This document shows positions 4,358 through 57,186 of a DNA stretch of 64,000 bases, piece by piece. The stretch is from an uncultured bacterium (GTDB lineage: Bacteria > Armatimonadota > Hebobacteria > CAYNSX01). The notes beneath the pieces were generated by a model. It was not told where the DNA came from. It saw only the letters and a program-made list of their open reading frames with translations, and searched no databases. The stretch covers positions 5,380-69,379 of the forward strand of contig CAYNSX010000004.1 of the NCBI GenBank assembly GCA_964400165.1, in the 5' to 3' direction. Position 1 is the first letter of the stretch. Each line of letters starts with the position of its first letter. The translations under genes and the position numbers were made by a program.

Positions 4358-4451
4358 GACCAGGAAGGCGGGGAGGCGGTGACCAGTGTGTCATGACGAC
4401 GCGTGATTGCGCCGTTCCTGCTTCCCTGCCTCCCCGCCTCCCCGGTTCCTG
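4358..4451. repeat. family-A palindromic repeat element (GACCAGGAAGGCGGGGAGGCGG ... CCGCCTCCCCGGTTCCTG hairpin)
   Basis: Inverted-repeat arms of about 22-30 nt flank a ~35-nt loop. Closely related copies sit at 14498-14570 and 16245-16312, and a half copy at 5905-5948. Confidence 0.5.
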
Positions 4452-5904: not shown

Positions 5905-5948
5905 TCCTCCTCCCCGCCTTCCTGCCTCCCTGCCTCCCCCGTTCCCCA
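5905..5948. repeat. half copy (C/T-rich arm only) of the family-A repeat
   Basis: CCTCCTCCCCGCCTTCCTGCCTCCCTGCCTCCCCCGTTCCCC matches the right arm of the 4.4 kb, 14.5 kb and 16.3 kb copies. No matching G-rich left arm lies nearby. Confidence 0.35.
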
Positions 5949-6210: not shown

Positions 6211-7449
6211 TCATGGCTCCGCGATCCCGGTGGAGTAGGCAAGTGACTCTTGTTCTGGAGGGACTGCCAATCGCCGTTCGATGAGGGCGTGCACCAATTC
6301 GTCGGGGACTTCGCCGTTCTCGGACAGGAGCAGCGCGCGCCGCATACAGGTCTCGAGTTCGCGCAAGTTGCCCGGCCAGTCGTAGCGCTCCAGCCGCGCC
6401 AGCACCGGCGGCGTCAGGTGCGGCACCGGTCGGTGCAGCGCCCGGGCGTGCAGCGCGAGGAAATGGCCGGCCAGGTGGGCGATATCTTCCACCCGCTCAC
6501 GCAGCGCCGGCAAGTGAAGCGCGACGCACCCCAGCCGCGCCGCCAGCCGCGGCGGGAAGTCGCGCAGCGTGCGCAGATCGCGCGTCGCGGTGGCGATGAC
6601 ACGCACATCGACGCGCGTCCCGCTGCCCGCGCCGACCGCGTGCACGCGCCCCTCCATCACCAGCCGCTCCAGGCGCACCAGCAAATCGTCCTGCGCCTGG
6701 TGCACGCGCCGCACCACCAGCGTGCCCAAGTCGGCCTGCAACGCCGCGCCCACTCGCTCCACCGCCCCGGCGATCGGTTCGCCCAGCAGTCCGAAGAGAA
6801 GTGCGGTCGGGTCGCTGCCGTTCCCGTTCGTGCAACTCGCCACCATCAGCGGCCCGCGGGACCGCAAACTCTTCTGATGCAGCGCCTGCGCCCAGACCAG
6901 TTTCCCGGTTCCGTGCTCGCCGAACAGCGCGACGGGCAGGTCTGAAGTGGCGAGCGCCTGCAAGGCCCGGAAGTATTCGCGCAATTGCGGGTGCGTCCCG
7001 ACCATCCCCTCGACCCGGCCCACGGCGCCGCTGTCGGGGCTGGCGTTGCGCTGCCGCGCCCGCTGCAGCGCATCGCGGAACGCCGACAGCACAAACGGAT
7101 TGGGCACCACCGCATCCGCCCCCCACGACAGCCCCTCCGACGCCCGCCCGAACACCAAACTGTCCGCCAGCAGCACCAGCACCGGCGTCGGCACCCTTGC
7201 CTTGATGCGGCTGCACAGCGACCGGGCCTCTTCGGCATTGGCGAGAAACGGCGCCACCACCAAGTCGGGCGCCGGCAGTGGCCAGGACTGCTCGTCCATC
7301 TGTGCCGCCACCGCCGTCCGATAGCCCTCTTCGGACAGGATGGTGGCGACCAGCGACGCCACCGCCTGCTCGATGCCGACCACCAGCGCGACCCGGGCCT
7401 CCGGGTGGAGTCCCGCCCGCGCGTCATCCGCTCGCCATCCGTTCGCCAC
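6211..7449 (-). CDS. sigma-54-interaction (AAA+ bEBP) domain protein with a receiver-like N-terminus; atypical (degenerate GAFTGA, no C-terminal HTH)
   Basis: Walker A FGEHGTGK is present, and the Walker B / arginine-finger region aligns with NtrC-type activators. The position of GAFTGA reads GEPIAGAV, and the C-terminus (..DWPGNLRELETCMRRALLL..) lacks a Fis-type HTH. Confidence 0.55.
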   Translation of the reverse strand: MANGWRADDARAGLHPEARVALVVGIEQAVASLVATILSEEGYRTAVAAQMDEQSWPLPAPDLVVAPFLANAEEARSLCSRIKARVPTPVLVLLADSLVFGRASEGLSWGADAVVPNPFVLSAFRDALQRARQRNASPDSGAVGRVEGMVGTHPQLREYFRALQALATSDLPVALFGEHGTGKLVWAQALHQKSLRSRGPLMVASCTNGNGSDPTALLFGLLGEPIAGAVERVGAALQADLGTLVVRRVHQAQDDLLVRLERLVMEGRVHAVGAGSGTRVDVRVIATATRDLRTLRDFPPRLAARLGCVALHLPALRERVEDIAHLAGHFLALHARALHRPVPHLTPPVLARLERYDWPGNLRELETCMRRALLLSENGEVPDELVHALIERRLAVPPEQESLAYSTGIAEP

Positions 7450-10120: not shown

Positions 10121-12802
10121 ATGAGCCATCCCGCCTCGGCCCGCTGGATCGTCTGCAAGTTCGGCGGCACCAGCGTCGCCACGCGCGCTCGCTGGGACAC
10201 GATCGTCGCCATTGCACGCGAGCGCCTCGCCGAAGGGCTGCGCCCGGTCCTGGTGTGTTCCGCGCTCGACGGCGTCTCGGACGACCTCGAGCGCTGCGTC
10301 GAGGAGGCCGTTCGCGGCAAGCAGCAACCAATCCTGGACGCCATCGCCGCGACGCACTACGCGCTCGGCGACGCCCTCGGCCTCAATGCGGACACATTGC
10401 TCCGTGCCGACTTCGAGGTGCTGACCGGTCTTCTCGCGGCCATTGCGGAGGCGAAAGAGATCACTCCGGCTCGCCACGCCCGCGTCCTGGCGACGGGGGA
10501 ACTCCTCGCCACCCGCCTCGGCGCCGCGTTCTGCAACGCCTCCAGCCTGCCGACCGCCTGGGTGGACGCGCGCTCCTGCCTCGTGTCCACCGACGAGCAG
10601 CATGTCGGCGAGACGCGGCGCATGCTCTCCGCCGTCTGCGCCGCGGAACCGGACCCGGCTCTCGCCGCGCAATTCGCGGCGCTGCCCGAATCGGTCCTTG
10701 TGACGCAGGGGTTCATCGCCCGCTTGGCCGGCGGTGACACGGTCTGCCTGGGGCGCGGCGGCTCCGACACTTCGGCGGCGATCTTCGCCGCCCGGCTGGG
10801 CGCCGTCCACTGTGAAATCTGGACCGATGTGCCTGGGATGTTTTCCGCGGACCCGCGGCAGGTGCCCGCGGCGCGGCTGCTCCGGGCGCTCGACTACGAC
10901 GAGGCCCAGGAGATTGCGACGACCGGCGCCAAAGTGCTGCACCCGCGGTGCATCGCGCCGCTGCGCCAGCACCGCATCCCCCTCCACATCCGCTGGATCG
11001 AGCGACCGGAGTGGGCCGGAACCGTGGTGTCGGGTGACCCGGGCGAAGCCGGCCCGCAAATCAAGGCGATCTCCGCCAAAGGCGACATCACGCTCATCGC
11101 GATGGACACGCCCGGCATGTGGCAGCAGGTCGGTTTCCTCGCCGACACTTTCGCCGTCTTCCAGCGGCACGGCCTCTCGATTGACCTCGTGTCCACTTCC
11201 GAAATGAATGTCACCGTCTCGCTCGACCCGGGCGCCAACCTGCTCGACCCCGGCGCGCTGCATGCGCTGCTGGAAGACCTCCGCCCGCTGTGCACTCCGC
11301 GGACCATCGGCCCCTGTGCCGCGGTCAGTCTGATCGGGCGTAACATCCGAGGGCTGCTGCACGAACTGGGGCCCGCGCTCGAATTGTTCGGGGAGCACCG
11401 CATTCATCTCGTCTCGCAAGCGGCCAGCGACCTCAATTTTACCGTCGTCGTCGACGCCGGCCAGGCGGAGCCGCTCGTCCGGCAGCTGCACGCGCTCTTC
11501 TTCGAGGACCGGGCGGATGATGCGCTCCTCGGCCCGAGTTGGCGCAGTCTGTTTGCAGGCGGCGATGCGCCCGCAGCCACGGATGAAGTGACGGGCCCGA
11601 CGGTGTGGTGGCGCCAGCGGCGCGACGAATTGCTGGCCCTGGCGCGCGCCGCTGCGCCGCTCTATGTGAACGATGCCGCGTCGCTCGACGCCGCGGCCGC
11701 CCGCCTGCAGCGGCTCGCCGCCGTCGACCGCGTGTTCTACGCGCTCAAGGCCAACTCCCACCCCACGATCCTCGAGCGCTTCGCCGCCGCGGGGCTGGGG
11801 TTCGAATGCGTCTCGCCGGGCGAGATCGCCCGGGTCTTGCACACGGTCCCCAGGATCGATCGGCAGCGTATTCTCTTCACGCCGAACTTCGCCCCGCGCC
11901 ACGAATACGCCGACGCGTTCGCCGCCGGCGTGATGGTGACGCTCGACAACGCCTACCCGCTCGAGCGCTGGCCCGATATCTTCCGCGGCAGGGCGGTGTT
12001 CCTCCGCCTCGACCCGGGCCGCGGGCGTGGACACCATGCCTATGTCCGCACCGCCGGCGCGCAGTCGAAATTCGGCATCGCGGAGTTGCAACTCGACGAC
12101 CTCGCGGCGCGCCTCCGTGCATTGGATGTCCGGGTCATCGGCCTGCACGCGCATATCGGCAGCGGCATTCGTGACGCCGGCAGTTGGCTGGAAACGGCCG
12201 AGTTTCTGGCACGGAACGCAGCAAGATTCCCGGAAGTGACCGCGCTCGACCTCGGCGGCGGCCTCGGCGTCCCCGAACAGCCCGGTCAGGTGCCGCTCGA
12301 CTTGGCGGCGTTCGACGCGTCGTTGCAGCAGTTCAAGGCCGCGCACCCGCAGTTCGAACTGTGGCTGGAACCGGGGCGCTTCCTGGTCGCTGAAGCGGGC
12401 GTGCTCCTGGCGCGTGTGACGCAGGTTAAGCGCAAAGGCGACATCACCTTTGTCGGCATCGAGACCGGGATGAACTCACTCATTCGCCCGGCGCTCTACG
12501 GGGCGCACCACGAGATTGTGAACCTGACCCGCCTCGACGAACCGCCCGACCTGACGGCGAACATCGTCGGGCCGATTTGCGAATCCGCCGATGTCCTAGG
12601 CGCCGGCCGCCATCTGCCACCGACAGAGGAGGGCGATGTCTTGCTAATCGCCACCGCCGGCGCCTACGGCGCCGCCATGTCCTCGCACTACAACTTGCGC
12701 GAACCCGCCGCCGAAGTCATGTTGCCGCCGGCTACAACCGCGCCGCGGCGCACCAATTCGCGGAAAGGGCGCCCAGCGAAACAGCCGAGGCCCGCGCCGT
12801 GA
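10121..12802 (+). CDS. lysAC: bifunctional aspartate kinase / diaminopimelate decarboxylase (LysC-LysA fusion)
   Basis: The N-terminal ~450 aa are aspartokinase (..IVCKFGGTSVATRARWDTIVAI..VLVCSALDGVSDDL.. plus ACT-like region). The C-terminal ~430 aa are a PLP-dependent DAP decarboxylase (..PLYVNDAASLDAAAARLQ..VFYALKANSHPTILERFAAAGLGFECVSPGEIARV..). Confidence 0.8.
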   Translation: MSHPASARWIVCKFGGTSVATRARWDTIVAIARERLAEGLRPVLVCSALDGVSDDLERCVEEAVRGKQQPILDAIAATHYALGDALGLNADTLLRADFEVLTGLLAAIAEAKEITPARHARVLATGELLATRLGAAFCNASSLPTAWVDARSCLVSTDEQHVGETRRMLSAVCAAEPDPALAAQFAALPESVLVTQGFIARLAGGDTVCLGRGGSDTSAAIFAARLGAVHCEIWTDVPGMFSADPRQVPAARLLRALDYDEAQEIATTGAKVLHPRCIAPLRQHRIPLHIRWIERPEWAGTVVSGDPGEAGPQIKAISAKGDITLIAMDTPGMWQQVGFLADTFAVFQRHGLSIDLVSTSEMNVTVSLDPGANLLDPGALHALLEDLRPLCTPRTIGPCAAVSLIGRNIRGLLHELGPALELFGEHRIHLVSQAASDLNFTVVVDAGQAEPLVRQLHALFFEDRADDALLGPSWRSLFAGGDAPAATDEVTGPTVWWRQRRDELLALARAAAPLYVNDAASLDAAAARLQRLAAVDRVFYALKANSHPTILERFAAAGLGFECVSPGEIARVLHTVPRIDRQRILFTPNFAPRHEYADAFAAGVMVTLDNAYPLERWPDIFRGRAVFLRLDPGRGRGHHAYVRTAGAQSKFGIAELQLDDLAARLRALDVRVIGLHAHIGSGIRDAGSWLETAEFLARNAARFPEVTALDLGGGLGVPEQPGQVPLDLAAFDASLQQFKAAHPQFELWLEPGRFLVAEAGVLLARVTQVKRKGDITFVGIETGMNSLIRPALYGAHHEIVNLTRLDEPPDLTANIVGPICESADVLGAGRHLPPTEEGDVLLIATAGAYGAAMSSHYNLREPAAEVMLPPATTAPRRTNSRKGRPAKQPRPAP

Positions 12803-13590
12803 CCCCGCACTTGCTGGTTGCGCTCATCGCGCTCTCCGCCGCGGCGCTGACGCTGTTCTCCGGCTTCGGCCTCGGCACCATCCTGCTGCCGGTGTTTGCT
12901 CTGTTCTTCCCCGTCGAAATCGCCGTCGCCGCGACGGCCATCGTGCATCTGGCGAACAACCTCTTCAAGATCGGCCTCATCGGCCGCCACGCGCACTGGC
13001 CCACCGTGGCGCGCTTCGGCATCCCCGCCGCAGTCGGCGCGCTCCTCGGCGCCGAAGCGCTCGTCCGGCTGGGCACGCTGCCGCCTGTCGCCACCTATGC
13101 GCTCGGAACGACCGACCACACCATTACGCTGGTGCATCTCGTCATCGGATCGCTCATCTTCGTCTTCGCGCTCGTCGAACTGCTGCCCGCCGGGCAGCGC
13201 CTCGGTTTTGGCCGCCGCTACCTCGGCATCGGCGGCGCACTGTCGGGGTTTTTCGGGGGCGTCTCGGGGCATCAGGGTGCGCTGCGCTCCGCCTTCCTCA
13301 TCAAGGCCGGACTGACGAAGGAGCAGTTCATCGGCACCGGCGCGGTCGCCGCCGTCTTCGTGGATGTGTCCCGGCTGGTGGTCTACGGGCTGGCGTTCGT
13401 CGGCGACCCCTGGGCCGCGCTCCGGGGCTCCGGCGCGTTGGCGCTGGTCGTAACTGGTACCGTTGCCGCGTTCCTTGGCTCCTATTTCGGCGCCCGGCTG
13501 CTCCCCCGCCTGACGCTGGCGAGCGTCCGCCTCATCATCGGCGTCCTGCTGTTGGTGATGTCCGTCGCCATCGCCACGGCCCTCGTCTAG
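12799..13590 (+). CDS. TauE/SafE (TSUP) family sulfite/anion exporter
   Basis: Two-fold repeat of 4-TM units (..LFSGFGLGTILLPVFALFFPVEIAVAATAIV.. / ..GGALSGFFGGVSGHQGALRSAFLIKAGL..). It starts at a GTG overlapping the lysAC stop (GTGA). Confidence 0.7.
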   Translation: MTPHLLVALIALSAAALTLFSGFGLGTILLPVFALFFPVEIAVAATAIVHLANNLFKIGLIGRHAHWPTVARFGIPAAVGALLGAEALVRLGTLPPVATYALGTTDHTITLVHLVIGSLIFVFALVELLPAGQRLGFGRRYLGIGGALSGFFGGVSGHQGALRSAFLIKAGLTKEQFIGTGAVAAVFVDVSRLVVYGLAFVGDPWAALRGSGALALVVTGTVAAFLGSYFGARLLPRLTLASVRLIIGVLLLVMSVAIATALV

Positions 13591-13603
13591 ACCCAGTCAT
13601 CCA

Positions 13604-13654
13604 TTGACTCCCTCCAAAAGTTAGGATAACCTAACTTTAGTTAGGCACTCCTAA
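13604..13654 (+). promoter_or_regulatory. promoter (-35 TTGACT, -10 TAACCT) overlapped by two AT-rich palindromic operator-like sites GTTAGG-ataa-CCTAAC and GTTAGG-cact-CCTAA
   Basis: A perfect 6+4+6 palindrome (13620-13635) and a second near-palindrome (13640-13654) sit between the -35 element and the RBS GGGGAGG of the outer-membrane gene starting at GTG 13671. The sequence is strikingly AT-rich for this genome. Confidence 0.5.
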
Positions 13655-13670
13655 ATCAAGGGGAGGAACC

Positions 13671-14486
13671 GTGGTGACTGGCCGATTGCTGCACTTTCCA
13701 AGATTGCTGCTGTTGCTCGCTGCACTTGCCGCAGGTCTCTTCGTTCCGATGGAGTCCGCCACGGCTGATGAAGAGGACGAATATGAATTCTCTCGCCCTT
13801 TCATCACCGAATACCCCGAAGCCGACACCGAACTGCGCTTGAGTTTCTTCGTCATCAAAGGCGACCGCGAGCCCGGGCGCACACACCTAGTCCGGCTCTT
13901 GGCCGAGTACGCCTTCCGGCACAACGCCAGCATCGAGATTGAGATCCCGTGGGCCAACTTTCGGCCGGTCGGCGGTTCCTCCGTCAGCCATGTCGGTGAC
14001 ATCGAACTCGGCCTGAAGTTCGTCACCGGCGAGAGCGAGGCGCGCGGCACCGCCACCGCGCTCGGCCTCGAAGTCCGGGCGCCGACCGGCAGCAGCGCCC
14101 TCGGCATCGGCAGCAGCAGTGTGTGGGAACTGGAGCCGTTCTTCGTATTCGGGCGCCGACACGGCGACTGGGAAACGATCGGCGTCGTCCGGCTGGGCTT
14201 CCTCTTCAACGAGCCCGCCGGCGAACCGTCAGAGACGGAACTCGGTTTCGACCTCTCGCTGCTGCGTCACTTGAGTGAGCGCTGGCAGGCGCTGGTCGAG
14301 ATCAATGGCGAGCACGGCCTGCGCGGCGAGGAGGCGGGCGCGACGCTCGTCACCCTCACGCCCGGCCTCAAGTGGCGCCCCAACCCGCACCGCGGCGAGC
14401 AAATCGGCATTGGCGCCAGTTTCCCCGTCACCGGGCCGCGCGAATTCACCAGCCGCGTCTTCCTGATGCTGTTCAAGCCGATGTAA
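13671..14486 (+). CDS. outer-membrane beta-barrel protein (MetA-pathway / transporter-like family), secreted
   Basis: Signal peptide (LLHFPRLLLLLAALAAGLFVP), alternating amphipathic beta strands, a C-terminal aromatic residue pattern, and ..VGDIELGLKFV... Confidence 0.5.
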   Translation: MVTGRLLHFPRLLLLLAALAAGLFVPMESATADEEDEYEFSRPFITEYPEADTELRLSFFVIKGDREPGRTHLVRLLAEYAFRHNASIEIEIPWANFRPVGGSSVSHVGDIELGLKFVTGESEARGTATALGLEVRAPTGSSALGIGSSSVWELEPFFVFGRRHGDWETIGVVRLGFLFNEPAGEPSETELGFDLSLLRHLSERWQALVEINGEHGLRGEEAGATLVTLTPGLKWRPNPHRGEQIGIGASFPVTGPREFTSRVFLMLFKPM

Positions 14487-14497
14487 CAACCAAAGGG

Positions 14498-14570
14498 ACC
14501 AGGGAGGCGGGGAGGCGGGGAGGCAGTGGAGCATTGACTGCGTTCCCGCCTCCCTGCCTCCCTGCTTACC
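14498..14570. repeat. family-A palindromic repeat element between convergent genes
   Basis: GACCAGGGAGGCGGGGAGGCGGGGAGGCAG ... CGTTCCCGCCTCCCTGCCTCCCTGCTTACC. Confidence 0.5.
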
Positions 14571-14576
14571 TAGTCT

Positions 14577-16160
14577 TTAGTCATTCCAATCCGGCGGCCA
14601 ATTGCCCGCCGCCTTGGCGTCGGCGCTGAAAACATCCCACTCGGCATCGGTGAAGCGCCGCACGCTCCCGTCGAGCATCGCCGCGAACACATACCCGCGC
14701 GGCCAGGCGAGGAACGCGAGCGGCACCCCCTGCGGGTTCGGCCGCCCCATCACCATCTGCCCGGGCTGAATCAAGAAACTCACCAGCGCCTCGCCCCCGG
14801 GCGCGCCGAGCGAGTCACTATTCGGCAGCAAGGAACCCACCATGCCCAGGATGCCCTCGGGAAAACTTTCCGCATTCAAGTCAGGGAACCGACTCCCCCA
14901 CACCTTGAGGACATTTTGGAGTGCCGCGGACACCTCACGCATCCGCGACTCGGCGAGTTGCAGCTTCTGCTCATCGCTCAACGGGAGCCCATAGTGCGCC
15001 CGCTCGTCGAGCGTGGCGTCATCCAGGCGAAGGTCAGCCAGCCAAATCTGCCCGCCACGGACAAAACAGACACTCAATGAATCCCCCGCCCATTCCGCTT
15101 CGAAAGACGCATCTGCCGCCACCAACAGCGTGTTGTGACTCCGTCGTTCGGGATTCAGCGCCCACAGGAGAAACAAGTTGCCCTTCCACTCATTCCGCAC
15201 CTCGTCGCGCAGCGGAATCGAAGAGCCGAAGAGCAGCAAGTCATGCTTCGCCGACCAGCCGAGAATGGGGCCCGAGTCACGGGTCACGACTTGCGACTCG
15301 CCCGAGTGCAAGTCAATGACCGACCTGAACACCGTGTCCGCGGCTTGGTCGTGTGCCAACTCGACGCGAAACCGTCCGCTCGGCGATTGCAATCGAATCG
15401 GCCATCGCGTTATGCCAACAACCATATCTCGTTCGAGCAAGACCGATTGCCCCGCTTCGAGGTCGTAATTTACCAACTTTCCTTGCCGGCGTTCACTCCC
15501 GTCGGCATCCACAACACGCTGCGACGCCAAGAATTCGATGCCGTCGCCTTCGGCGTTCCAGCGCGGGATGATTCCCTCACCCACTACGGTAACCGCTCCC
15601 GTCCTCGCGTCAGCCAGCAGGACCTGCGACGGCGTGTCGGGGCTTCGCATGGTGCCAATCAGGATTCGCGTTCCTTGCGGCTCGCAGGCGACAGTCTGTA
15701 AGCGGGCGCCGCCCAACGTGTGCGTCTGGCTCTGCCAGGTGCGCGCATCGAAGACGCGCACCTCGCGCACCTCTCCGTTCTCATTCAGCCACGGCACCAC
15801 CAGTATCGGTGCGCCCTGGCACCAACAGAGGTCGGGATTCAGCCCGCCAGCGAACATCATTTCAGCCTTTAGCAAAACCCGCGGCATCCCTCCGGATGCG
15901 GGGATGACGCTCACCCGCGGCCCCATCATCCGCACCGTGGCGCCCGTCCGGGAATCAGCAACCGGATACGACAGTTCCAGATACGCGATCCACTTCCCGT
16001 CCGGGCTGGCCGCCAGCGAATACACTTCCGCATCGTGGGTCAGTTGCCGCGAGCCGCCCGCGCGGGCGATCTGGTCACCGACGACCATGACTGGATCGGG
16101 CCGCGTAGATCCCGCCGCCGCGAGAATCATCACCCAAGGAACTAGCCAGCCGTTCGCCAT
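14577..16160 (-). CDS. periplasmic PD40/TolB-like beta-propeller protein with an unassigned C-terminal domain
   Basis: Signal peptide MANGWLVPWVMILAAAG, followed by repeated ..SPDGKWIAY.. / ..GQIWLADL..-type blades. The start is taken at M28 of the track ORF. Confidence 0.55.
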   Translation of the reverse strand: MANGWLVPWVMILAAAGSTRPDPVMVVGDQIARAGGSRQLTHDAEVYSLAASPDGKWIAYLELSYPVADSRTGATVRMMGPRVSVIPASGGMPRVLLKAEMMFAGGLNPDLCWCQGAPILVVPWLNENGEVREVRVFDARTWQSQTHTLGGARLQTVACEPQGTRILIGTMRSPDTPSQVLLADARTGAVTVVGEGIIPRWNAEGDGIEFLASQRVVDADGSERRQGKLVNYDLEAGQSVLLERDMVVGITRWPIRLQSPSGRFRVELAHDQAADTVFRSVIDLHSGESQVVTRDSGPILGWSAKHDLLLFGSSIPLRDEVRNEWKGNLFLLWALNPERRSHNTLLVAADASFEAEWAGDSLSVCFVRGGQIWLADLRLDDATLDERAHYGLPLSDEQKLQLAESRMREVSAALQNVLKVWGSRFPDLNAESFPEGILGMVGSLLPNSDSLGAPGGEALVSFLIQPGQMVMGRPNPQGVPLAFLAWPRGYVFAAMLDGSVRRFTDAEWDVFSADAKAAGNWPPDWND

Positions 16161-16244: not shown

Positions 16245-16312
16245 GACCAGGAAGGCGGGAACGCAGGGAGGCAGTGACTGCCTTCCTGCCTTCCCGCCTC
16301 CCCGGTTCCTAG
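16245..16312. repeat. family-A palindromic repeat element abutting the stop codon of the peroxiredoxin gene
   Basis: GACCAGGAAGGCGGGAACGCAGGGAGGCAGTG-ACTGCCTTCCTGCCTTCCCGCCTCCCCGGTTCCTAG is a near-perfect palindrome. The TAG stop of the upstream gene lies at its edge. Confidence 0.5.
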
Positions 16313-16914
16313 TTTTTGCCCTGCAGTTCCGCGAGCTTCTTTGCCAGGTCGGCGCCGTGCGTCTTCACACTCACCTTCAGATCGATGTAGCGGACAACGC
16401 CGTCCGGGTCAATGATGAAGGTGCCGCGCTTGGACATGAATTGGACATCGAAGCCGCGCGCTTTCATTTGGGCTTGCTGGTCAGCCGTCAGCATCTGCAG
16501 CATCCCGTAGGACTTCGAGATCTTGCCGTCGGCGTCTACCAGCAGCGGAAACTGGAAGTTGTTCTTCTCGGCGAACTCCTTGTGCGTCTCCTTGCCCTGC
16601 GCGCTGATGATGAAAATGGAAGCGTTGAGTGCTTTCAGATTGGCTTGCTCATCACGGAGCGAGCACCCCTGCAGCGTTCAGCCCCCCGTATTGTCGAGGA
16701 CATAGAACGAGAGGATGACCCAGTCCTTCCCCTTGTGGTCGGCGAGGCGCTGTCGCTTGTCGTTCTGATCGGTGGTGTCGAAGAGGGGGGCCTTGTCGCC
16801 CGCCTTCAGTTGCGGTTCGTCCACTGTCGGTCCTTCCGCGGCGGTCACGCGCGGCGCCGCCAGCATCACGGCGACCAGCGCGCACACGCCCAGCATCCGA
16901 ATGGCTTGTCGCAT
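16309..16914 (-). CDS. secreted BCP/PrxQ-type peroxiredoxin with in-frame TGA (candidate selenocysteine) at the peroxidatic-Cys position; 201 codons if read through
   Basis: Track ORFs 16678..17013 and 16309..16503 lie in the same frame and are separated only by a TGA at 16678-16680. The read-through product ..WVILSFYVLDNTGG[TGA]TLQGCSLRDEQ..GTFIIDPDGVVRYI.. aligns with E. coli Bcp ..[23 protein letters not shown].., so the TGA sits on CP and the resolving Cys is kept. An N-terminal signal peptide (MRQAIRMLGVCALVAVMLAAPRVTA) is present. Confidence 0.6.
16643..16664 (-). ncRNA. candidate bacterial SECIS hairpin 14 nt downstream of the in-frame UGA
   Basis: mRNA UGA-ACGCUGCAGGGGU-[GCUcGCUC-CGUGAU-GAGCaAGC]: an 8-position stem with one C.A mismatch and a 6-nt apical loop containing GU at +26/+27 relative to the U of UGA. 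The spacing is close to the 11-nt-spacer / apical G,U rule known from E. coli fdhF. Confidence 0.35.
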
Positions 16915-16945: not shown

Positions 16946-17392
16946 TTACTCGGTTTTGGAAGTGCTCTCCCCCGGCCAGTGCAGCGGCATCGTCGGGCGG
17001 TCGAGCATCTCACGCACCTTCACCGGCGCGTCGGGCGCCGGATGCAGGCGCGGCAGGTCGCCCGGAGCCGCCGGGTCGCGCCCGAAGGCGGCGACGAAGC
17101 GGTCGAGGTCGCGCCGCAGCCGCGCCAAGTCGATGCCGCGGTAGCGCGGCGGCAGTTGGTCGAGTTTCTCGATGCAGTGTTCGTGCAGCCCGCGCACGCC
17201 GGCGAGATTGCCCCGGCTCCAGTGATAGACCGTCACCGCCGCCTGAATCAGCGCGTGATAGAAAGTGCGCTCGTCGCCGTGCACCTGCTTCCACAACGCT
17301 TCCAGCACCTCGTGACACTGGAAGTAGTCGCCCTCGTTGAACAGGGCGATGCCGCGCAGGAAGTCGGGGTGCAGCGCCGGGTCAGGCGGCAT
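16946..17392 (-). CDS. DUF309-family protein
   Basis: ..LRGIALFNEGDYFQCHEVLEALWKQVHGDERTFYHALIQAAVTVYHWSRGNLAGVRGL.. is the DUF309 signature. The start is M70 of the track ORF; it overlaps the upstream peroxiredoxin stop by about 11 nt. Confidence 0.55.
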   Translation of the reverse strand: MPPDPALHPDFLRGIALFNEGDYFQCHEVLEALWKQVHGDERTFYHALIQAAVTVYHWSRGNLAGVRGLHEHCIEKLDQLPPRYRGIDLARLRRDLDRFVAAFGRDPAAPGDLPRLHPAPDAPVKVREMLDRPTMPLHWPGESTSKTE

Positions 17393-17873
17393 TCCTCGCC
17401 GCGGCGAGCACCTCGTCGAACGGCGGCAGTTCGCGGATGTTCTCCCGCACATCGGCATACACGATTTTTCCGTCGCGGCCGATGACGAAAGTGGCCCGCT
17501 CCGAAAACCCCTGCGGGCGGAGGACGCCGTACAGTTCCGCCGCCTTGCCGTGCGGCCAGAAATCGGAGGCGACCGGATAGGGCAGCCCGGCCGGCGCAAT
17601 CGCCTTCACCCAGGCCTTCTTCGCCGGCATGCTGTCCACGCTGATGGAAACGACCTGCGCGCCGGCCTGGGCGTAGCGCTGCCATTCTTTCCCGACCGTG
17701 CACACCTCCGTCTCGCAAACGGCGGTGAACGCCAGCGGGTGAAACATCAAGATGACCGGCCCGTTCTTCAGGGACTCGCTCAACTTGACGGTGACATCCT
17801 TGACCTCCGGCTGCGAGACGAAGCCGGGCAGTTCGAAGTCGGGTGCGGTATCGCCTGCCTTCAGTGGTGGCAT
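17382..17873 (-). CDS. peroxiredoxin (AhpC/TSA / Prx5-like, Cys-type)
   Basis: MPPLKAGDTAPDFELPG..GPVILMFHPLAFTAVCETEVCTV..ATFVIGRDGKIVYADV.. carries the T-x-x-C peroxidatic motif. Confidence 0.8.
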   Translation of the reverse strand: MPPLKAGDTAPDFELPGFVSQPEVKDVTVKLSESLKNGPVILMFHPLAFTAVCETEVCTVGKEWQRYAQAGAQVVSISVDSMPAKKAWVKAIAPAGLPYPVASDFWPHGKAAELYGVLRPQGFSERATFVIGRDGKIVYADVRENIRELPPFDEVLAAARNAA

Positions 17874-20307: not shown

Positions 20308-21264
20308 TTGTCGTCTGGTTTAGTGAAGGGTACAACCTCCAAGATGCCCCGACCGAAAGAACCCGCCCTGCTCATCGGCACCGACGACGGCCTGCACCAA
20401 CTGCTGCCGGAGCCGCGCGTGGTGCTGCCCGAAGAGAAAGTGACCGCCATCGCCACCAGCGGCGAAGCCGTCTGGTGCATCACCGATGAGCGCACTGTCC
20501 GCCGCCAGCGCCACGGCACCGCCTTCAAGCCCATCTTCGAACTCACCGACCGCCGCCTCACCTGCCTGGGGCTGACCAGCCACGGCGTCTTCATCGGCAC
20601 CAGCGGCGCGCACCTGCTCCGCATCAAGAACAAGAAACTGGGGATGCTGCACTCCTTCGACCGCGTCACCGGGCGCAGCGAGTGGTTCACGCCTGACGGC
20701 GACGAGGCCGACATCCGCTCCATCGCCCAGTCCGAGAGCGGCGCCGTCTTCGTCAATGTCCATGTCGGCGGCATCCCGCGCACGCTCAACGGCGGCGACA
20801 CCTGGAAGCCCACCATCGACATCGAGCAGGATGTCCATCAGGTCATCGCCCACCCGAAGAAGGAAGGGCTGCTCCTCGCCGCCGCCGCGGTCGGGCTGTG
20901 CGTCAGTGACGACGACGGCGGCACCTGGACGGTGCGCAATGACGGCTTGCACGGCGACTACTGCCGGGCGGTGGCGCTCTGCCGCGACACCGTCCTGGTC
21001 ACGGCCTCGACCGGCCCGCGCAGCCGCCGCGGCGCCGTCTACCACACCTCGCTCAACGCCGCCGACACGCTGGAGAAGTGCGAGCGCGGCCTGCCCGAGT
21101 GGTTCCCCGGCAACATCGACACCGGCTGCCTTGCCGCCCACGGTGACCGTGCCGCCTTCGGCACCAAAGAGGGCGAAGTCTATCAGTCGCTTGACGCCGG
21201 CGAGTCCTGGACGCGCATCGCCGCCGCCCTGCCCCGCGTCCGCGCCGTCTCGTTTAGCGGGTAG
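20308..21264 (+). CDS. BNR/Asp-box repeat beta-propeller protein (sialidase-like / Ycf48-like fold)
   Basis: Asp-box repeats GGDTWK, SDDDGGTWT and SLDAGESWT. The start may instead be the ATG at 20344. Confidence 0.5.
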   Translation: MSSGLVKGTTSKMPRPKEPALLIGTDDGLHQLLPEPRVVLPEEKVTAIATSGEAVWCITDERTVRRQRHGTAFKPIFELTDRRLTCLGLTSHGVFIGTSGAHLLRIKNKKLGMLHSFDRVTGRSEWFTPDGDEADIRSIAQSESGAVFVNVHVGGIPRTLNGGDTWKPTIDIEQDVHQVIAHPKKEGLLLAAAAVGLCVSDDDGGTWTVRNDGLHGDYCRAVALCRDTVLVTASTGPRSRRGAVYHTSLNAADTLEKCERGLPEWFPGNIDTGCLAAHGDRAAFGTKEGEVYQSLDAGESWTRIAAALPRVRAVSFSG

Positions 21265-21406
21265 GACGCTGGGATGAGATGCCTGCGCAACCCTCCGCGG
21301 CGTCGGTTCGTCAGGTTTGCCATTGCCTCAGTGGCTGAAAGTGAGGCCTTGGGCATGCGATTCGCTCGATTCTTATCAGTAATTCTACTGAGTTGGGGTC
21401 TGTTCA

Positions 21407-21436
21407 CTTGACAGCGTTGCGGGGCGCGGGGATGAT
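21407..21436 (+). promoter_or_regulatory. sigma70-like promoter TTGACA -N17- GATGAT at the edge of the low-GC island
   Basis: A consensus -35 hexamer with a 17-nt spacer, followed by the RBS GGGAGCGAGG and the ATG of the Cys-rich ORF. Confidence 0.4.
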
Positions 21437-21463
21437 TCGCAGCGCTTGAAGGGAGCGAGGTCA

Positions 21464-21844
21464 ATGAGACTGAGAGCGGGGTCAGCAGTTCAGGCACTTT
21501 TGATTCTGGTCTTGCTGTCGGGAAGCGCGGGACCGCTGTTCGCAGTCTGTACGGTCGACCACGGACCATGCGTCAATGATGGCACATGCGAGGTCGGGAC
21601 TCTCGAATGCCAATCATATAATGAATTGACTGGGACCAATAAAGGGGTCATCTGTATTATGTCATGGCCCTTGGAACAAATCACCCGCCACGCGGGATCC
21701 TCACCCGATTTATATTTCATGACGCGTTATTGTGTCGAACTGGGAAAATGGCCTTGGCAATGGCCTGGCTGCGCTTGCCTCGGAACTCCAGACCAAACTG
21801 AACACCAGAGTCCATATGTTAGCTGCCAGACAACATGGCCATGA
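21464..21844 (+). CDS. small secreted cysteine-rich protein (10 Cys in about 100 mature residues), no recognisable family
   Basis: Signal peptide MRLRAGSAVQALLILVLLSGSAGPLFA, then CTVDHGPCVNDGTCEVGTLECQ...CIMSW...YCVELGKWPWQWPGCACLG...CQTTWP. GC is markedly lower than in the flanks. Confidence 0.4.
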   Translation: MRLRAGSAVQALLILVLLSGSAGPLFAVCTVDHGPCVNDGTCEVGTLECQSYNELTGTNKGVICIMSWPLEQITRHAGSSPDLYFMTRYCVELGKWPWQWPGCACLGTPDQTEHQSPYVSCQTTWP

Positions 21845-21905
21845 TGGAGGAATGGCTGGTCTGCGAAGTCGGGATGACCGTCTTTGCGAATGAGGAGGAG
21901 GATCT

Positions 21906-22976
21906 GTGAACACCACACATCCGACTGCGTTTCGCGCCTTCACATTAGTCGGCTTACTCGTAGTTGGCATTCTGGGCTTCGTTCTCTGGTTGAGGTCGCC
22001 GGAACCGCAAAGGACATCAGTCGCGACTGCATCGCCGGTAGCTTCAGCGCTGACGATTGGGGCTGTCGGGGCGGATGCGAAAGCCGTAGAGCTCCTCAAT
22101 AAACTGCAGGAGCGACTCGTCTCTTTGGGGACCGTCTCGGCGATCTGGAGTGAGACTTGGGAGCAGCATCCCATTTCAGGACACAGCGCCCTTTTGGCAT
22201 TGTTGACCCGCTCTCCAAAGATACCAGTTTACGTGACGACACGCGAGTCTCGCTCTGTCTGGTTTGCCACCGACGGCACCAAGTGGCGGCTGGATTGTTC
22301 TGAAGCGGCAGAACCCGTTTATGCGGAAGGCAGCACCGGCGAACGATCTAAGGGGTCGGACGACTATTCTGTCGCGTTTGACGGACTGCTAACGACCGCT
22401 CTTTCACAGGGTGGACGGGCAATGTATATCGCTGACACATCGACTGCCCGTACCGCCGTGCCGCACAATGGCTGGGAACACACCTACCGCGCGATCCTTT
22501 TTGGGGTGCCCTATTACAACCTCGGACAAGGCAGCACTTTCGCTTATGCGGGCCGAGAGTTTTTTTCGAAGTGGTGGTGCCACCGCCTGCATGGGGAGGG
22601 CACGGTCGAAGCGCCTGCGGGTGCTAGCGGCGATTGGAGTTACGAGGTGGACCTCTGGATTACCGATGACCCGATAGGCGTGCCTGTGGGTTACGAATTC
22701 CGCGGACATCAGGGCAACGCCGGGACTAGTAAGTGGCACTGGCAGATTGACCGCTTGGAGCAGCCGGCCGCCGGTGTCTTTCTCGGCGCAGATGGGTGGA
22801 AGGCATTTTGGCCGCCGTCCTGGAAGCTGACCGAACCGGAAGCGCGGACGACCTGGACCCTGCAGCAGGCCAGTGTCGATAACTCCCCTGCAGCGGAGAC
22901 ATTCCATCTGAGTCCTCCGGTGAAATGTCTCGTCCACGATCTCGTCGCAGGGGAAACTCGGCAAACTGGCCCTTAG
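21906..22976 (+). CDS. hypothetical membrane-anchored protein (N-terminal TM helix, ~330-aa extracytoplasmic domain)
   Basis: GTG start; N-terminal AFRAFTLVGLLVVGILGFVLWL. No motif recognised. Lies inside the same low-GC island. Confidence 0.4.
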   Translation: MNTTHPTAFRAFTLVGLLVVGILGFVLWLRSPEPQRTSVATASPVASALTIGAVGADAKAVELLNKLQERLVSLGTVSAIWSETWEQHPISGHSALLALLTRSPKIPVYVTTRESRSVWFATDGTKWRLDCSEAAEPVYAEGSTGERSKGSDDYSVAFDGLLTTALSQGGRAMYIADTSTARTAVPHNGWEHTYRAILFGVPYYNLGQGSTFAYAGREFFSKWWCHRLHGEGTVEAPAGASGDWSYEVDLWITDDPIGVPVGYEFRGHQGNAGTSKWHWQIDRLEQPAAGVFLGADGWKAFWPPSWKLTEPEARTTWTLQQASVDNSPAAETFHLSPPVKCLVHDLVAGETRQTGP

Positions 22977-23103
22977 CCACAAGTCCGAGCGAATGATACG
23001 AGAAGGTCGCAACTTTTAGCGCCGCGCCGCCGCTTCCGCCTGCGCGTCCCCCTCACTCCCGCTTCCTCCTTCGCCCTATGGGCTACGAAGGACAAGTCGC
23101 GTA

Positions 23104-23235
23104 CCCCTCGCCAATGTCAGGGAGAGGGGATTACAAGCACCGTGGGGCGCTGGCTGTGCCTCTCCTCTTCAGGGAGAGGGTGTCCACCGAAGCCTGATGT
23201 TTGGGCGAAGGAGGGCGGGAGAGGGACTTTACACC
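23104..23235. repeat. family-B hairpin units abutting the mrp stop codon
   Basis: CCTCGCCaatgtcaGGGAGAGGGGA, CCTCTCCtcttcaGGGAGAGGG and GGGAGAGGGACTTTACACC. The last unit matches GGGAGAGGGACTTcgcg at about 17951. Confidence 0.4.
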
Positions 23236-52705: not shown

Positions 52706-55700
52706 TCAGAGGGGCAGTTGCGCCGCCCGCGTAATGAAAACTGCCATTTGGGCGCGGGTAACGATGTTCGCCGGCTTATATGTGCCGTCCGGGAATCCGG
52801 CTGTAATGCCCTTGCTGACGATGTATTCGATGAACTTGTAGGACGGGTGCGCGCACGAGACATCCGAGAAGCGCTCGCTGCCGCACGCTGGGGGAGTGAA
52901 AGCAGCAAGGTCGAGGTCGGCCAGGTCGCGCACGCGCGCAAGGAACACTGCCATCGCGCCGCGGCTGACGAAGTTGCCCGGTTTGTAGGTGCCATCCGGA
53001 AAGCCCGCGGCAATCCCCTTGCTGACAATGTACTCGATGAATTTGTAGGACGGGTGAGTGCACGAGAGATCGGAGAAGGTCTCACTGGCGCACGCTGGCG
53101 GCGCGAAAGAAGCGAAGTCGCCAAGCGTCAAATTTGCTGCCCGCGCCATGAAGACCGCCATCGCGCTGCGACTGACCATGCTGTCGGGGTGAAAGGAGCC
53201 GTCAGGGAACCCAGAAGCGATGGCGGCACGCGATACGGCTTCAATGAATTGGAATGCCCAGTAGCCGCAGGGGACATCGGAGAAGGAGTCGGCAGTTTGC
53301 TTCACAGCGTAGGAGACCGTGTCTTCCGAGGTCAGGCCACCCCAATCGGTGACGCGCAGCCGCACCGTGGTGACGCCAAGCGGCAACTCTATGACCTTGC
53401 GCTCGCCTTGCTCGTCAACGGTACCATCGTTTCCGAAATCCCACTCGAAGAAGGCAATGTTGTCGTTCGTGTGGGGCAGCGAGTCGAAGTCGGACGACCG
53501 CGTCCCATCGAGGAGTATTGTGCCAGCGGTCGCCTGGCAGCCGACGACGGTCGTCACATCGGGGCCGGCATCCGCTATCGGCTGCCGGTTCCCGCCCACC
53601 GCGACGAAGACCTCGCGTTGCAGCGCAGAATCGCGACCGAATCCGTTCGACACAGTGATCAGGGCCTCGCCGGAGTCAACAGCGGTGACAAGGCCGTCCG
53701 AAGTCACGGTGGCCACGGTCGGATCGGAAGTGGCAAACGACGTGCCGGTCGTCGTATCTGTCAGGTCGCGCCATAGCTGATCATTGAAGAGGCCCGTCAC
53801 TTGGAGCGGTTGGCTCTCTCCCATGTTTGCAAAGCGGATCGCGTCGGGCTGCACGACCAGATCAGCAAGGATCGCGTTTGGCATAGCGGTGACTGTGACC
53901 GCGGGGGAAGTGACCAGCGAACCATCTGCCAGCTGCCCCGCGGCCGAGATGGTGATGGGGCCGGAAGCGTTCGCCGATACCTGGTATGAAACAGTCCACG
54001 GGCTGCTCCCGGCCGGGTCGAGGACGACCGTGTCGTCGACTCCGAGCACGACCAGGCTTTGAGGCGCGATCCCATTGTCAGCGACGACCGTTACACTCAC
54101 GCTGCTGCCGCTTTCGACTTGCGTCCCCCCCAATGGGGCCGTGATATGCAATTGCCCATGCGAGGAGGGCCGCAACCTCGACGTGCCGGACACTGCACGC
54201 GGGGCCGCGCTCAACCTGGATAGGGCTGATGGTGCTGGTGGGAATGCGAAGGTCGCGGTATAGCTCGGGGTGTTGAGCAGCGCAAGAACGCGATCCCGGT
54301 ACACCGGGCTCGTTGTGTTCGCGGGGTGATTGAAGTCGCAGCCCTGAAACACATCGTACGCTCCGGACGGAAGCCCTCCCCGCTGGCTGTATGCGGACAC
54401 GATCCCATCGCTCGATGCACCTGAGAACACCGTATCCCATACCCCACACGCCGTATCCACGCCGCCGGCAGCGCATAGTGACCAGGTCTTAATGGCAAAG
54501 GAAAAGAAAACCCTCGCGTCAATGGAAAGACAGAACAACGCTTCACAGCCAAATCCGGCGTGCCCAATGAGCGCGTGAGTGGGGATTCCAGTCGCGCCCA
54601 TGTCCAAAATAGCCCGATTGCCAGGGACAAGGTCGTTCACTGCGCCCTGGTCGATTGGCAATCCTGCCTGGGCCATCAGCCAAGTCAGATATTCGCCGCA
54701 TAGCAAATGATTATCACGCATGTCGACGAGAGCGAGGGCGAGTCCTGACCCGAAGTGAGGGGTGTCAAGCGTAATGAGCTTGTGAACATCGCCCTGCATG
54801 AGGTTATCTCGGCGCCGGTATTCGGGCTGGTTGAAATACACCCGCGTCAGGACGCCGCCCATACTGTGTCCCACAATATCGGCGCCCATGACAGCGACTC
54901 CCGGGCGCCGCAGCTTGAACAGCGCAATTGCTTGAGCCACCGCGGTTCTCGGGACCAGAGCATTGGCAGCGAAGGAGAGCGCACTGCCTCGAGTGGAGGG
55001 ATCGTTGTCGGAATCCCCGTCGTAGTCCGCGATCCACATCACGAATCGGGAATCTTGTATGAATGATGTAAAGAACGGTGCCTGACCTTGAGACCAAGTG
55101 TCCGCGTTGGACCAGACACCATGGAGCAGTACCACCGGAGGGCGGTGAATTTCGATGGATGTGTCCGGAAGCGTTTGTGCAGAGCCTCCCGCCGGATAGA
55201 AAGTCGCGTGCAACACGACACTGCGGGTGGCGCGAAATGCGTCGCCGGGCGCGCTCATGCGCACGAAGTCGGCCGGCGCCCGGTAATAGGCAAAGGCGAA
55301 TTTCCCCCGCGAGGTGTTCACCACCGGCACTGTCAGCGCCAGTCGTGGGTCGGAGCGATTGGCGAAGTACAGGCCGCCGCCCTCGTTAGTGTTCGCCTCA
55401 TTCTGGACTGCAAAAGCCACCGTCCCGTCGGCGGTAGCCGGCAAGCGCAAGAGCACTGTCGCTTGACCGTCCGCCGCGACGCCACGTCGCGGGCCGCCGC
55501 CGACGGCTAACACCTCGGCGGCAGTGACGGTATTGCCGGTGCTGCCAACGAACTCCGGCCAGGCGTCGAGCCGCTGGACGGGTCCGCGAACTGCGCGATT
55601 CGGACCGGTCGTGAATGCTACCGTGGCGTAGTTGGAATAGCCGACCGGGTAGTCGTAGTACAAGGCAGTGCCCGTCACGAACACGGTCGCCCCATCGGGG

Positions 55701-57064: not shown

Positions 57065-57186
57065 GGCTTCAGCCCCCTTGTGGCAAGCCAACATGCCAAT
57101 GCCCTGACTTCGTGCGCGGCGCCTCAATCCCTGCCACCCTGCCCCTGCCCTGCGTAGCCCGGAGGGCGAAGCAGGGTCCCTGGTCC

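Follow-up and report, generated by a model that had tools for sequence, protein, structure and literature searches.

Tandem candidate operators of the iron-box type upstream of an outer-membrane beta-barrel gene in an uncultured bacterium

RESULTS

Two inverted repeats lie in the putative promoter of a barrel gene

We analyzed a 64-kb stretch of DNA from an uncultured bacterium (the window, 66% GC overall), in which a short intergenic gap precedes a gene for a predicted outer-membrane beta-barrel. The gap (13591 to 13673, + strand) is about 80 bp long and separates a TauE/SafE-family membrane protein gene from the open reading frame (ORF) of the barrel, both on the + strand. It contains two inverted repeats, here called dyads, which we examined as candidate operators. 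From 5' to 3', the order of its elements is TTGACT, 10 nucleotides (nt), GTTAGGATAACCTAAC, TTTA, GTTAGGCACTCCTAAA, TCAAGG, GGAGG, 7 nt, and GTG. A sequence-only reading of this DNA had placed a -35 hexamer, a -10-like hexamer and both dyads here, and all four were present at the positions it gave. Its figure of 70% GC for the genome was too high for the window as measured, and the operator block itself has about 48 to 51% GC.

The hexamer TTGACT (13604 to 13609, + strand), which can be read directly, agrees with TTGACA at five of six positions and is the putative -35 element. The candidate -10 element, TAACCT (13627 to 13632, + strand), lies inside the first dyad and agrees with TATAAT at three of six positions. 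With a spacer of 17 nt between the two hexamers, transcription is predicted to start at about 13639 to 13641. A Shine-Dalgarno sequence, GGAGG (13662 to 13666, + strand), is found 7 nt 5' of the GTG at 13674. The longest ORF begins one codon earlier, at 13671. This codon is GTG in the window and GTC in the locus of a sister species described below, while the GTG at 13674 is common to both, so the true start of the barrel gene is probably 13674.

The first dyad (13617 to 13638), AAAGTTAGG-ATAA-CCTAACTTT, covers the putative -10 element. According to a repeat finder, its arms AAAGTTAGG and CCTAACTTT are 9 nt each (13617 to 13625 and 13630 to 13638) and 100% complementary. Its core 16-mer, GTTAGGATAACCTAAC at 13620 to 13635, is perfect and includes TTAGG-N4-CCTAA at 13621 to 13634. 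The second dyad (13640 to 13655) reads GTTAGG-CACT-CCTAAA, that is GTTAGGCACTCCTAAA; it has a single mismatch, at the outermost position, and a perfect 5+5 core at 13641 to 13654. This agrees with the two 16-bp dyads, one of them perfect, of the sequence-only reading. The second dyad contains the predicted +1, extends to about +16, and ends 18 nt before the start codon. In the output of the repeat finder, the pair of dyads also appears as a direct repeat, 20 bp from start to start.

The pattern TTAGG-N4-CCTAA occurred twice as a perfect core in the window, both times in this gap, and not once in 100 dinucleotide-preserving shuffles. When the 6+6 pattern was searched with two mismatches allowed, the two dyads were again the sole matches in the window. 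Three further matches to TTAGG-N4-CCTAA were found with two mismatches, which equals the chance expectation.

The dyads have the pentamers and spacing read by one IdeR dimer

A literature search combining GTTAGG, CCTAAC, iron and repressor ranked papers on the Corynebacterium DtxR regulon first. Crystal structures of IdeR have been solved on TTAGGTTAGSCTAACCTAA, which holds four CCTAA repeats, one per subunit. One dimer occupies repeats 1 and 3, two pentamers that are 4 bp apart (PMC8464063); therefore, one dimer reads TTAGG-N4-CCTAA. Both designed and natural forms of such a "half binding site" were bound by a single dimer, with a dissociation constant of about 78 to 102 nM (PMC8464063). In repressed genes, IdeR boxes overlap the -10 element and/or the start site (PMC10317159). 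TroR, an iron regulator of the DtxR family in Haloferax volcanii, gave the motif TTTAGGC-NNN-CCTAAA in chromatin immunoprecipitation sequencing (ChIP-seq); at a siderophore promoter, the motif occurs twice, about 30 bp apart, and either copy suffices for repression (PMC10783522).

Both dyads of the window consist of inverted CCTAA/TTAGG pentamers with a 4-bp spacer, as read by one dimer. The additional pentamers that a four-pentamer 19-bp box would contain were looked for at offsets of +/-5 from either dyad, and no TTAGG-like pentamer was found there. Because these pentamers are absent and the spacers of 222 units from other genomes (see below) lack a CTAA/TTAG bias, we assign the dyads, by their sequence, to the half-site (one-dimer) form, present twice. 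The first dyad over the putative -10 hexamer and the second over the predicted +1 would also fit the published position rule for IdeR (PMC10317159). The sequence-only reading had thought of a TetR-, MarR- or Fur-like repressor. A function like that of Fur still appears apt, but the match to the IdeR CCTAA pentamer points to the DtxR family instead.

Both cores are kept in a sister lineage

Among 5.8 billion proteins, the barrel protein has just one other 90%-identity cluster (P0002), which is 76% identical to it. The corresponding lineage is represented by four loci (L001 and L202 to L204), which we counted once; the contigs, from three data sources, are 99.99 to 100% identical. The 20.8-kb sister locus used for comparison, L001, is fully syntenic with the window. 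It keeps an identical -35 hexamer, the -10 hexamer and both 5+5 cores. Its first dyad is GTTAGGATAACCTAAT and its second GTTAGGCATTCCTAAA; one outer base and one spacer base have changed, and the cores are untouched. The distance from the -35 hexamer to the dyad is 1 nt longer than in the window, which makes the spacer between the -35 and -10 elements 18 nt, and GGAAGG stands at the place of the Shine-Dalgarno sequence. The flanking coding DNA of the two loci is itself about 82% identical, and for this reason the conservation of the dyads in two species is supportive, not decisive.

The tandem motif recurs beside iron genes in other genomes

We then scanned one genome per species (185,579 species, 596 Gb) for GTTAGG-N4-CCTAA followed, after a gap of 3 to 8 nt, by a second GTTAGG-N4-CCTAA, a pattern with 22 specified bases. 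At least 119 loci matched, against about 0.4 expected by our own calculation for a uniform base composition. The taxonomic, spacing and neighborhood results that follow refer to the matches listed. Most came from Thermoleophilia/Solirubrobacterales and Acidimicrobiia. Other bacteria were Pseudonocardiaceae, Chloroflexi, Acidobacteria, WOR-3 and Omnitrophica, and the archaea included Methanobacteriaceae, Methanocellaceae, Bathyarchaeia and others.

Nine loci with tandem-repeat arrays (in Porphyromonas, Treponema, Phycisphaeraceae, Bacteroidales and Holophagae) were set aside, which left 110 of the 119 loci, with 111 tandem sites, for the spacing statistics. Gaps of 5, 6 and 4 nt between the two units were counted in 51, 27 and 16 sites, respectively. 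A start-to-start spacing of 20 to 21 bp was found in 78 of the 111 sites (70%); 20 bp, the spacing in the window, was the commonest class. No preference for CTAA/TTAG was seen in the 4-bp spacers of the 222 units.

Next, the 150 ORFs starting at most 130 bp from a site, on either side, were compared with Pfam (E<=1e-5). Solute-binding proteins of Fe3+-type ATP-binding cassette (ABC) transporters were the largest class, with 26 ORFs, followed by FeoA with 13 and the FTR1 iron permease with 8. Dihydroxy-acid dehydratase genes (7 ORFs) were divergent from binding-protein genes. Imelysin/EfeO-like proteins and DtxR-family regulators (Fe_dep_repress plus Fe_dep_repr_C) accounted for 6 ORFs each, Peripla_BP_2 for 4 and Cupredoxin_1 for 3. 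By tblastn, DtxR-family genes were present inside 13 of the 8-kb loci. Two diderm bacteria provided precedents for such a site beside an outer-membrane protein gene: in Terriglobus, the tandem site lies between a DtxR gene and a gene for a 1162-aa outer-membrane receptor, and in WOR-3, it lies 5' of a TonB-dependent receptor gene. A Chloroflexi genome has the site between a DtxR-family gene and an FTR1 gene. From its neighborhoods, the tandem motif is a widespread candidate operator beside genes for iron uptake and for DtxR-family regulators. Together with the conservation in the sister lineage, these results support the earlier proposal that a dimeric repressor has a pair of operators here, over the -10 and +1 positions.

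In methanogens (seven Methanobacteriaceae loci: L004, L005, L014, L075, L097, L108 and L116), the tandem operator stands directly 3' of a TTTATATA TATA box and 5' of feoA-like genes, with DtxR-family genes 2 to 4 kb away. This layout suggests repression by blocking of polymerase recruitment.

The barrel belongs to a metal-linked family

The barrel gene (13674 to 14486 on the + strand; GC at third codon positions, 0.82) is predicted to encode a secreted outer-membrane beta-barrel of 270 aa with 12 strands. The Pfam family PF13557 (Phenol_MetA_deg) scored 21.9 bits on the protein, with a cutoff of 22. Among 44 close homologs, 15 matched PF13557 at E<=1e-3 (best, 1.8e-8) and 3 matched OMP_b-brl. 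The protein had no match in NCBIfam and no relative in the PDB at the sequence level. A search of 1.84 billion cluster representatives gave 309 homologs at E<=1e-3; those with names came from Hydrogenedentes, Gemmatimonadota and Bacteroidota. An AlphaFold2 (AF2) model built on a 63-sequence alignment had a mean predicted local distance difference test score (pLDDT) of 90.8 and a predicted template-modeling score (pTM) of 0.82, and showed a helix at residues 9 to 22, the putative signal peptide, followed by the 12 strands. When the model was compared with the PDB by Foldseek, FapF (5o65; E, 1e-10; TM score, 0.64 to 0.70) and the COG4313 channel Pput2725 (4rl8; E, 8e-9; TM score, 0.66) were retrieved. 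The product is thus confidently modeled as a divergent channel of the COG4313/Phenol_MetA_deg/FapF-like kind. The "MetA/phenol-pathway transporter-like" barrel of the sequence-only reading is therefore borne out by the modeled fold, with a borderline Pfam score. COG4313 proteins have been linked to hydrophobic-molecule uptake (PMC4493636).

Distant homologs of the barrel, 30 to 40% identical, were found in 79 metagenome loci. Their neighbors include CopD (13), CopC (12), cation-efflux (10) and ArsR-type (9) genes. Most of these homologs have a His-rich N terminus ending in LHFSHPL, where the window protein has DEEDEYEFSRPF; the latter also carries an acidic N-terminal segment, DEEDEYEF. Because its members adjoin CopC/CopD, cation-efflux and ArsR genes and carry His-rich N termini, the family is evidently metal-linked, and control by a candidate iron box appears specific to the lineage of the window. 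A recurring cluster was seen in loci L122 to L200 (e.g., L171, 2374 to 8743), with ORFs of about 570 and 460 aa, a CopC-like ORF of about 130 aa, the barrel, a cation-efflux-like ORF of about 210 aa, an ArsR-type ORF of about 105 aa and a methyltransferase. It looks like an uncharacterized copper/cation outer-membrane module.

The barrel gene forms a monocistronic unit; the gene that follows runs toward it, and the two are separated by a long hairpin. This GC-rich, near-perfect hairpin (14494 to 14578) has a stem of about 27 bp made of GGGGAGGC octamer repeats, with a folding energy of -67.7 kcal/mol (z, -7.9), and its Rfam matches, of which there were many, were all sub-threshold ones to microRNA hairpins. 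The transcription unit probably ends at this hairpin, which L001 lacks; there, the barrel gene and the convergent gene (554 aa) are 6 nt apart. G-rich (GGGAGGC/GGGAAGC)n octamer repeats occur in the gaps at 4420 to 4450, 5908 to 5938, 14502 to 14562 and 16280 to 16302 (7 matches versus 0 expected), which suggests a family of intergenic repeats similar to repetitive extragenic palindromic (REP) elements.

Other features of the window and its host

The TauE/SafE-family gene 5' of the operators (12799 to 13590, + strand) shares 4 nt with a lysC-lysA fusion gene, at the stop codon of the latter, and L001 is laid out likewise. The fusion (10121 to 12802, + strand; 893 aa) joins an aspartokinase (AA_kinase plus ACT) to a pyridoxal phosphate (PLP)-dependent decarboxylase of the diaminopimelate/ornithine type, so that the first and last steps of lysine synthesis reside in one protein; the ATGA overlap couples it translationally to the TauE-family gene. 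On the other side of the barrel gene, an AhpC/TSA-like gene, the second of its kind, is split into two short ORFs (16309 to 16900, - strand; 12572 to 13195 in L001, with ORFs of 112 and 78 aa). It adjoins an intact peroxiredoxin gene (17382 to 17873) and a DUF309 gene, and is possibly a pseudogene or a split gene. About 2 kb at approximately 21264 to 23229 have no counterpart in L001, which runs directly from a 306-aa gene to an Mrp/ParA-type gene; the ORFs in this part have no GC bias by codon position and no Pfam matches, and a recent insertion is probable.

Further products of the window are a large SLH-domain protein, a DUF348-G5-3D protein and a class V fructose bisphosphate (FBP) aldolase/phosphatase. 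The very large ORF at 52709 to 57205 (- strand) has three C-terminal SLH domains, PQQ_2 (BamB-like) and Big_2 repeats. Its GC bias by codon position is below that of its neighbors, and in the longest-ORF listing it overlaps a glycosyltransferase gene (57187 to 59304). Ribosomal protein S1 of the host is 86% identical to that of the sister species; otherwise, no relative exceeds 58%, and the nearest named match is to Armatimonadota, at 55%. These features hint at a poorly sampled diderm lineage, possibly near Armatimonadota.

DISCUSSION

The proposed switch

We propose that the barrel gene is transcribed from a sigma-70-type promoter with two operators for a metal-dependent repressor of the DtxR/IdeR family, most probably a sensor of Fe2+, and we put the probability of this reading at roughly 0.78. 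Each TTAGG-N4-CCTAA dyad would be bound by one dimer, with one winged-helix subunit per CCTAA pentamer. Because the units are 20 bp, or about two helical turns, apart, both dimers would share one face of the helix, the first covering the -10 hexamer (13627 to 13632) and the second the predicted start (about 13639 to 13641), at the edge of the second dyad. When the metal is plentiful, the loaded repressor would occupy both sites and exclude RNA polymerase. When it is scarce, the apo-repressor would leave, and the monocistronic barrel gene would be transcribed. Its product may then admit iron, or some divalent cation like it, through the outer membrane. Repression by occlusion, the possession of such a regulator by the host, the metal, and the substrate of the channel are all what we infer from this arrangement.

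Several results weigh against the proposal. A consensus scanner called no sigma-70 promoter at the dyad region because the -10 hexamer fits the consensus at only three of six positions; the promoter at 13604 to 13632 is therefore predicted from its -35 hexamer, its 17-nt spacer and its conservation. The -10-like hexamer of the sequence-only reading is weak. The identity of the gap between the window and L001 is little above that of the flanking coding DNA, and among 5.8 billion proteins the pair of gene and operator is carried by two independent lineages only. In the 79 loci with distant homologs, the motif was never found 5' of the barrel gene (three one-mismatch matches lie elsewhere in these loci), and the neighbors there point to copper or other cations, not iron. 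No DtxR-family gene was detected in the 64-kb window or the 20.8-kb L001 by tblastn with seven queries from DtxR/FeoA clusters, five of which are DtxR-family regulators, nor by Pfam on about 45 ORFs of the window. There is no third operator in the window or in L001, where matches with two mismatches were at the chance level, so a local regulon was not seen. The only regulator gene nearby, for an NtrC-like sigma-54 activator (6211 to 7449, - strand), is 6 kb from the operators. Finally, one unclassified bacterium has a tandem site 5' of an Nramp gene, which makes Mn2+ possible as the signal.

The sequence-only reading had named, as what would speak against an operator pair, a motif found nowhere else and no transcription factor encoded nearby. 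Taken formally, this is what the window contains. We judged the window too narrow for such a verdict, because DtxR and IdeR are regulators of global scope and our evidence lies in other genomes. As for the NtrC-like response regulator itself, the NtrC model was matched up to position 379 of 463, with no HTH_8 match, so that the protein may be without the usual C-terminal DNA-binding domain.

Other readings of the dyads

Because the metal cannot be told from DNA alone, the serious rival is a manganese sensor (MntR/SirR-like) of the same family acting on the same architecture, with the barrel as an outer-membrane Mn2+ channel. The DtxR family does include manganese sensors (PMC10317159), the product of the Nramp gene mentioned above carries Mn2+/Fe2+, and the DEEDEYEF segment of the barrel suits hard cations. 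However, among the matches listed, iron systems (FeoA, FTR1, EfeO-like and Fe3+ binding proteins) make up the great bulk of the genes that flank the tandem motif, and SirR of Haloferax, a paralog of TroR linked to manganese, has a different motif, TTTwGAnnnnTCwAAA (PMC10783522). We therefore regard manganese as an unlikely signal, although the likeliest after iron.

A good deal less probable is a dimeric repressor unrelated to DtxR (TetR, MarR, Fur or other) that shares the half-site, or a palindrome that is a relict or due to chance. Dyads of 16 bp with half-sites 10 bp apart would suit many helix-turn-helix dimers, and neither the window nor L001 encodes a cognate regulator. Against this, the half-site matches the IdeR/TroR pentamer exactly and has the spacer of IdeR (PMC8464063, PMC10783522), and the regulator genes that adjoin the tandem motif in the matches listed are of the DtxR family. 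Chance is excluded by the shuffle statistics and by the conservation in L001.

Slightly more improbable still is an action of the dyads in the mRNA, where a hairpin in the leader would hide some of the ribosome-binding site, e.g., when transcription reads through from the TauE gene. In the minimum-free-energy fold, hexamer 1 is paired with 4 and 2 with 3, and CUCC (13612 to 13615) with GGGG (13660 to 13663); L001 folds equivalently via UUCCC/GGGAA, and the C-to-T change in its first dyad would keep a G-U pair. Yet the stems are short and A/U-rich, and the fold is no better than those of shuffled sequences (z, -1.7 and -1.9; +0.7 for the RNA from the predicted +1). No Rfam family matched 13600 to 13670, even at E<=1. 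A hairpin would also leave unexplained why the motif stands beside iron genes, with variable spacers, after archaeal TATA boxes and in more than 100 unrelated genomes.

Four further candidates were rejected. For a sigma-54 promoter, AGGCAC in the second dyad resembles a -24 element, but the -12 element reads TC instead of GC in both species; because no acceptable -24/-12 promoter exists, the NtrC-like activator was not linked to the operator site. For a CIRCE element bound by HrcA, TTAGGCACTC resembles the left arm, but its partner GAGTGCTAA is missing. A Crp/Fnr-type 5-N4-5 site has the same geometry, but its half-site differs, the position is repressive, and the regulon evidence points to DtxR. 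A known cis-regulatory RNA or riboswitch found no match in Rfam over the region, and the folds did not exceed those of shuffles.

Meaning of the proposed switch

The kind of operator is known, namely, the DtxR/IdeR/TroR iron box in its one-dimer form, and the proposed switch would work like known ones. Two aspects are modestly new: the target, a small COG4313/FapF-like barrel of a diderm whose iron switch appears to be of the DtxR and not the Fur type, and the wide spread of the phased half-site pair, as judged from motif matches. In gram-negative bacteria, iron is generally handled by Fur (PMC10317159).

Taken together, the observations allow a broader reading, which we put forward tentatively and hold to be possible rather than probable. 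The barrel may take up iron (or Mn2+) as a TonB-independent channel whose origin lies in a copper/cation-linked branch of COG4313/FapF-like proteins and which has come under a DtxR-type, not a Fur-type, sensor in a deep-branching diderm, possibly near Armatimonadota. Phased pairs of half-sites, 20 to 21 bp apart, may at the same time be the common form of DtxR-family operator across Bacteria and Archaea, of which the 19-bp actinobacterial box would be a special compaction. The occurrence and role of half-sites in other species were open questions in a 2023 review of IdeR (PMC10317159), and phased pairs, if this holds, would answer what half-sites are for. The IdeR half-site was described in 2021; in our survey, it is widely used as phased pairs 5' of iron-uptake genes, with examples in Thermoleophilia, Acidimicrobiia, Chloroflexi, Acidobacteria, WOR-3 and methanogens among the matches listed. 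This is relevant to the prediction of iron regulons in metagenome-assembled genomes. For the barrel, an uncharacterized outer-membrane channel gains a proposed regulator family and a proposed signal, metal limitation and most likely that of iron, and becomes a candidate for a small TonB-independent route for iron or manganese across the outer membrane. The host lineage is barely sampled, and the gene is present in two species only.

Comparison with known systems

Operators made of Fur boxes resemble the proposed switch in their effect: dimers loaded with iron, frequently two or more of them, block the promoters of genes for outer-membrane iron uptake. Fur is, however, a protein family unrelated to DtxR, and the Fur box consensus, an A/T-rich sequence of 19 bp (GATAATGATAATCATTATC), is not present at the site in the window.

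The classical 19-bp box TTAGGTTAGSCTAACCTAA of Corynebacterium, Mycobacterium, Streptomyces and Saccharopolyspora shares with the dyads the CCTAA/TTAGG pentamer, the 4-bp separation and the dimer geometry. It lies over the -10 element or the start of repressed genes, as predicted for the dyads, and it serves the iron-dependent repression that we propose for them (PMC8464063, PMC10317159). It differs in having four interdigitated pentamers within 19 bp, so that two dimers bind opposite faces with a 5-bp offset, whereas the two units of the window are complete and distinct, lie 20 bp apart and share one face. The host of the window, with its outer-membrane barrel and SLH-domain protein, is no obvious actinobacterium. 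The IdeR half-site of Saccharopolyspora erythraea (e.g., C23S1 at the nuo promoter) is single in the published cases, and its role is unknown; in the window, two half-sites are paired in helical phase on a putative promoter. TroR of Haloferax reads the same core, TTAGG-N4-CCTAA, in tandem copies, and is an iron sensor of the DtxR family (PMC10783522). Its sites belong to archaeal promoters, with copies about 30 bp apart and about 100 nt 5' of start codons, whereas the window has what is probably a bacterial promoter, a spacing of 20 bp and a second site that ends 18 nt before the start codon.

The barrel itself is modeled with the same 12-strand outer-membrane fold as Pput2725 (4rl8) and FapF (5o65), although sequence identity to them is only 12 to 13%. 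FapF is an amyloid exporter, whereas the subfamily of the window barrel adjoins CopC/CopD, cation-efflux and ArsR genes, and the window gene itself stands behind a candidate iron box.

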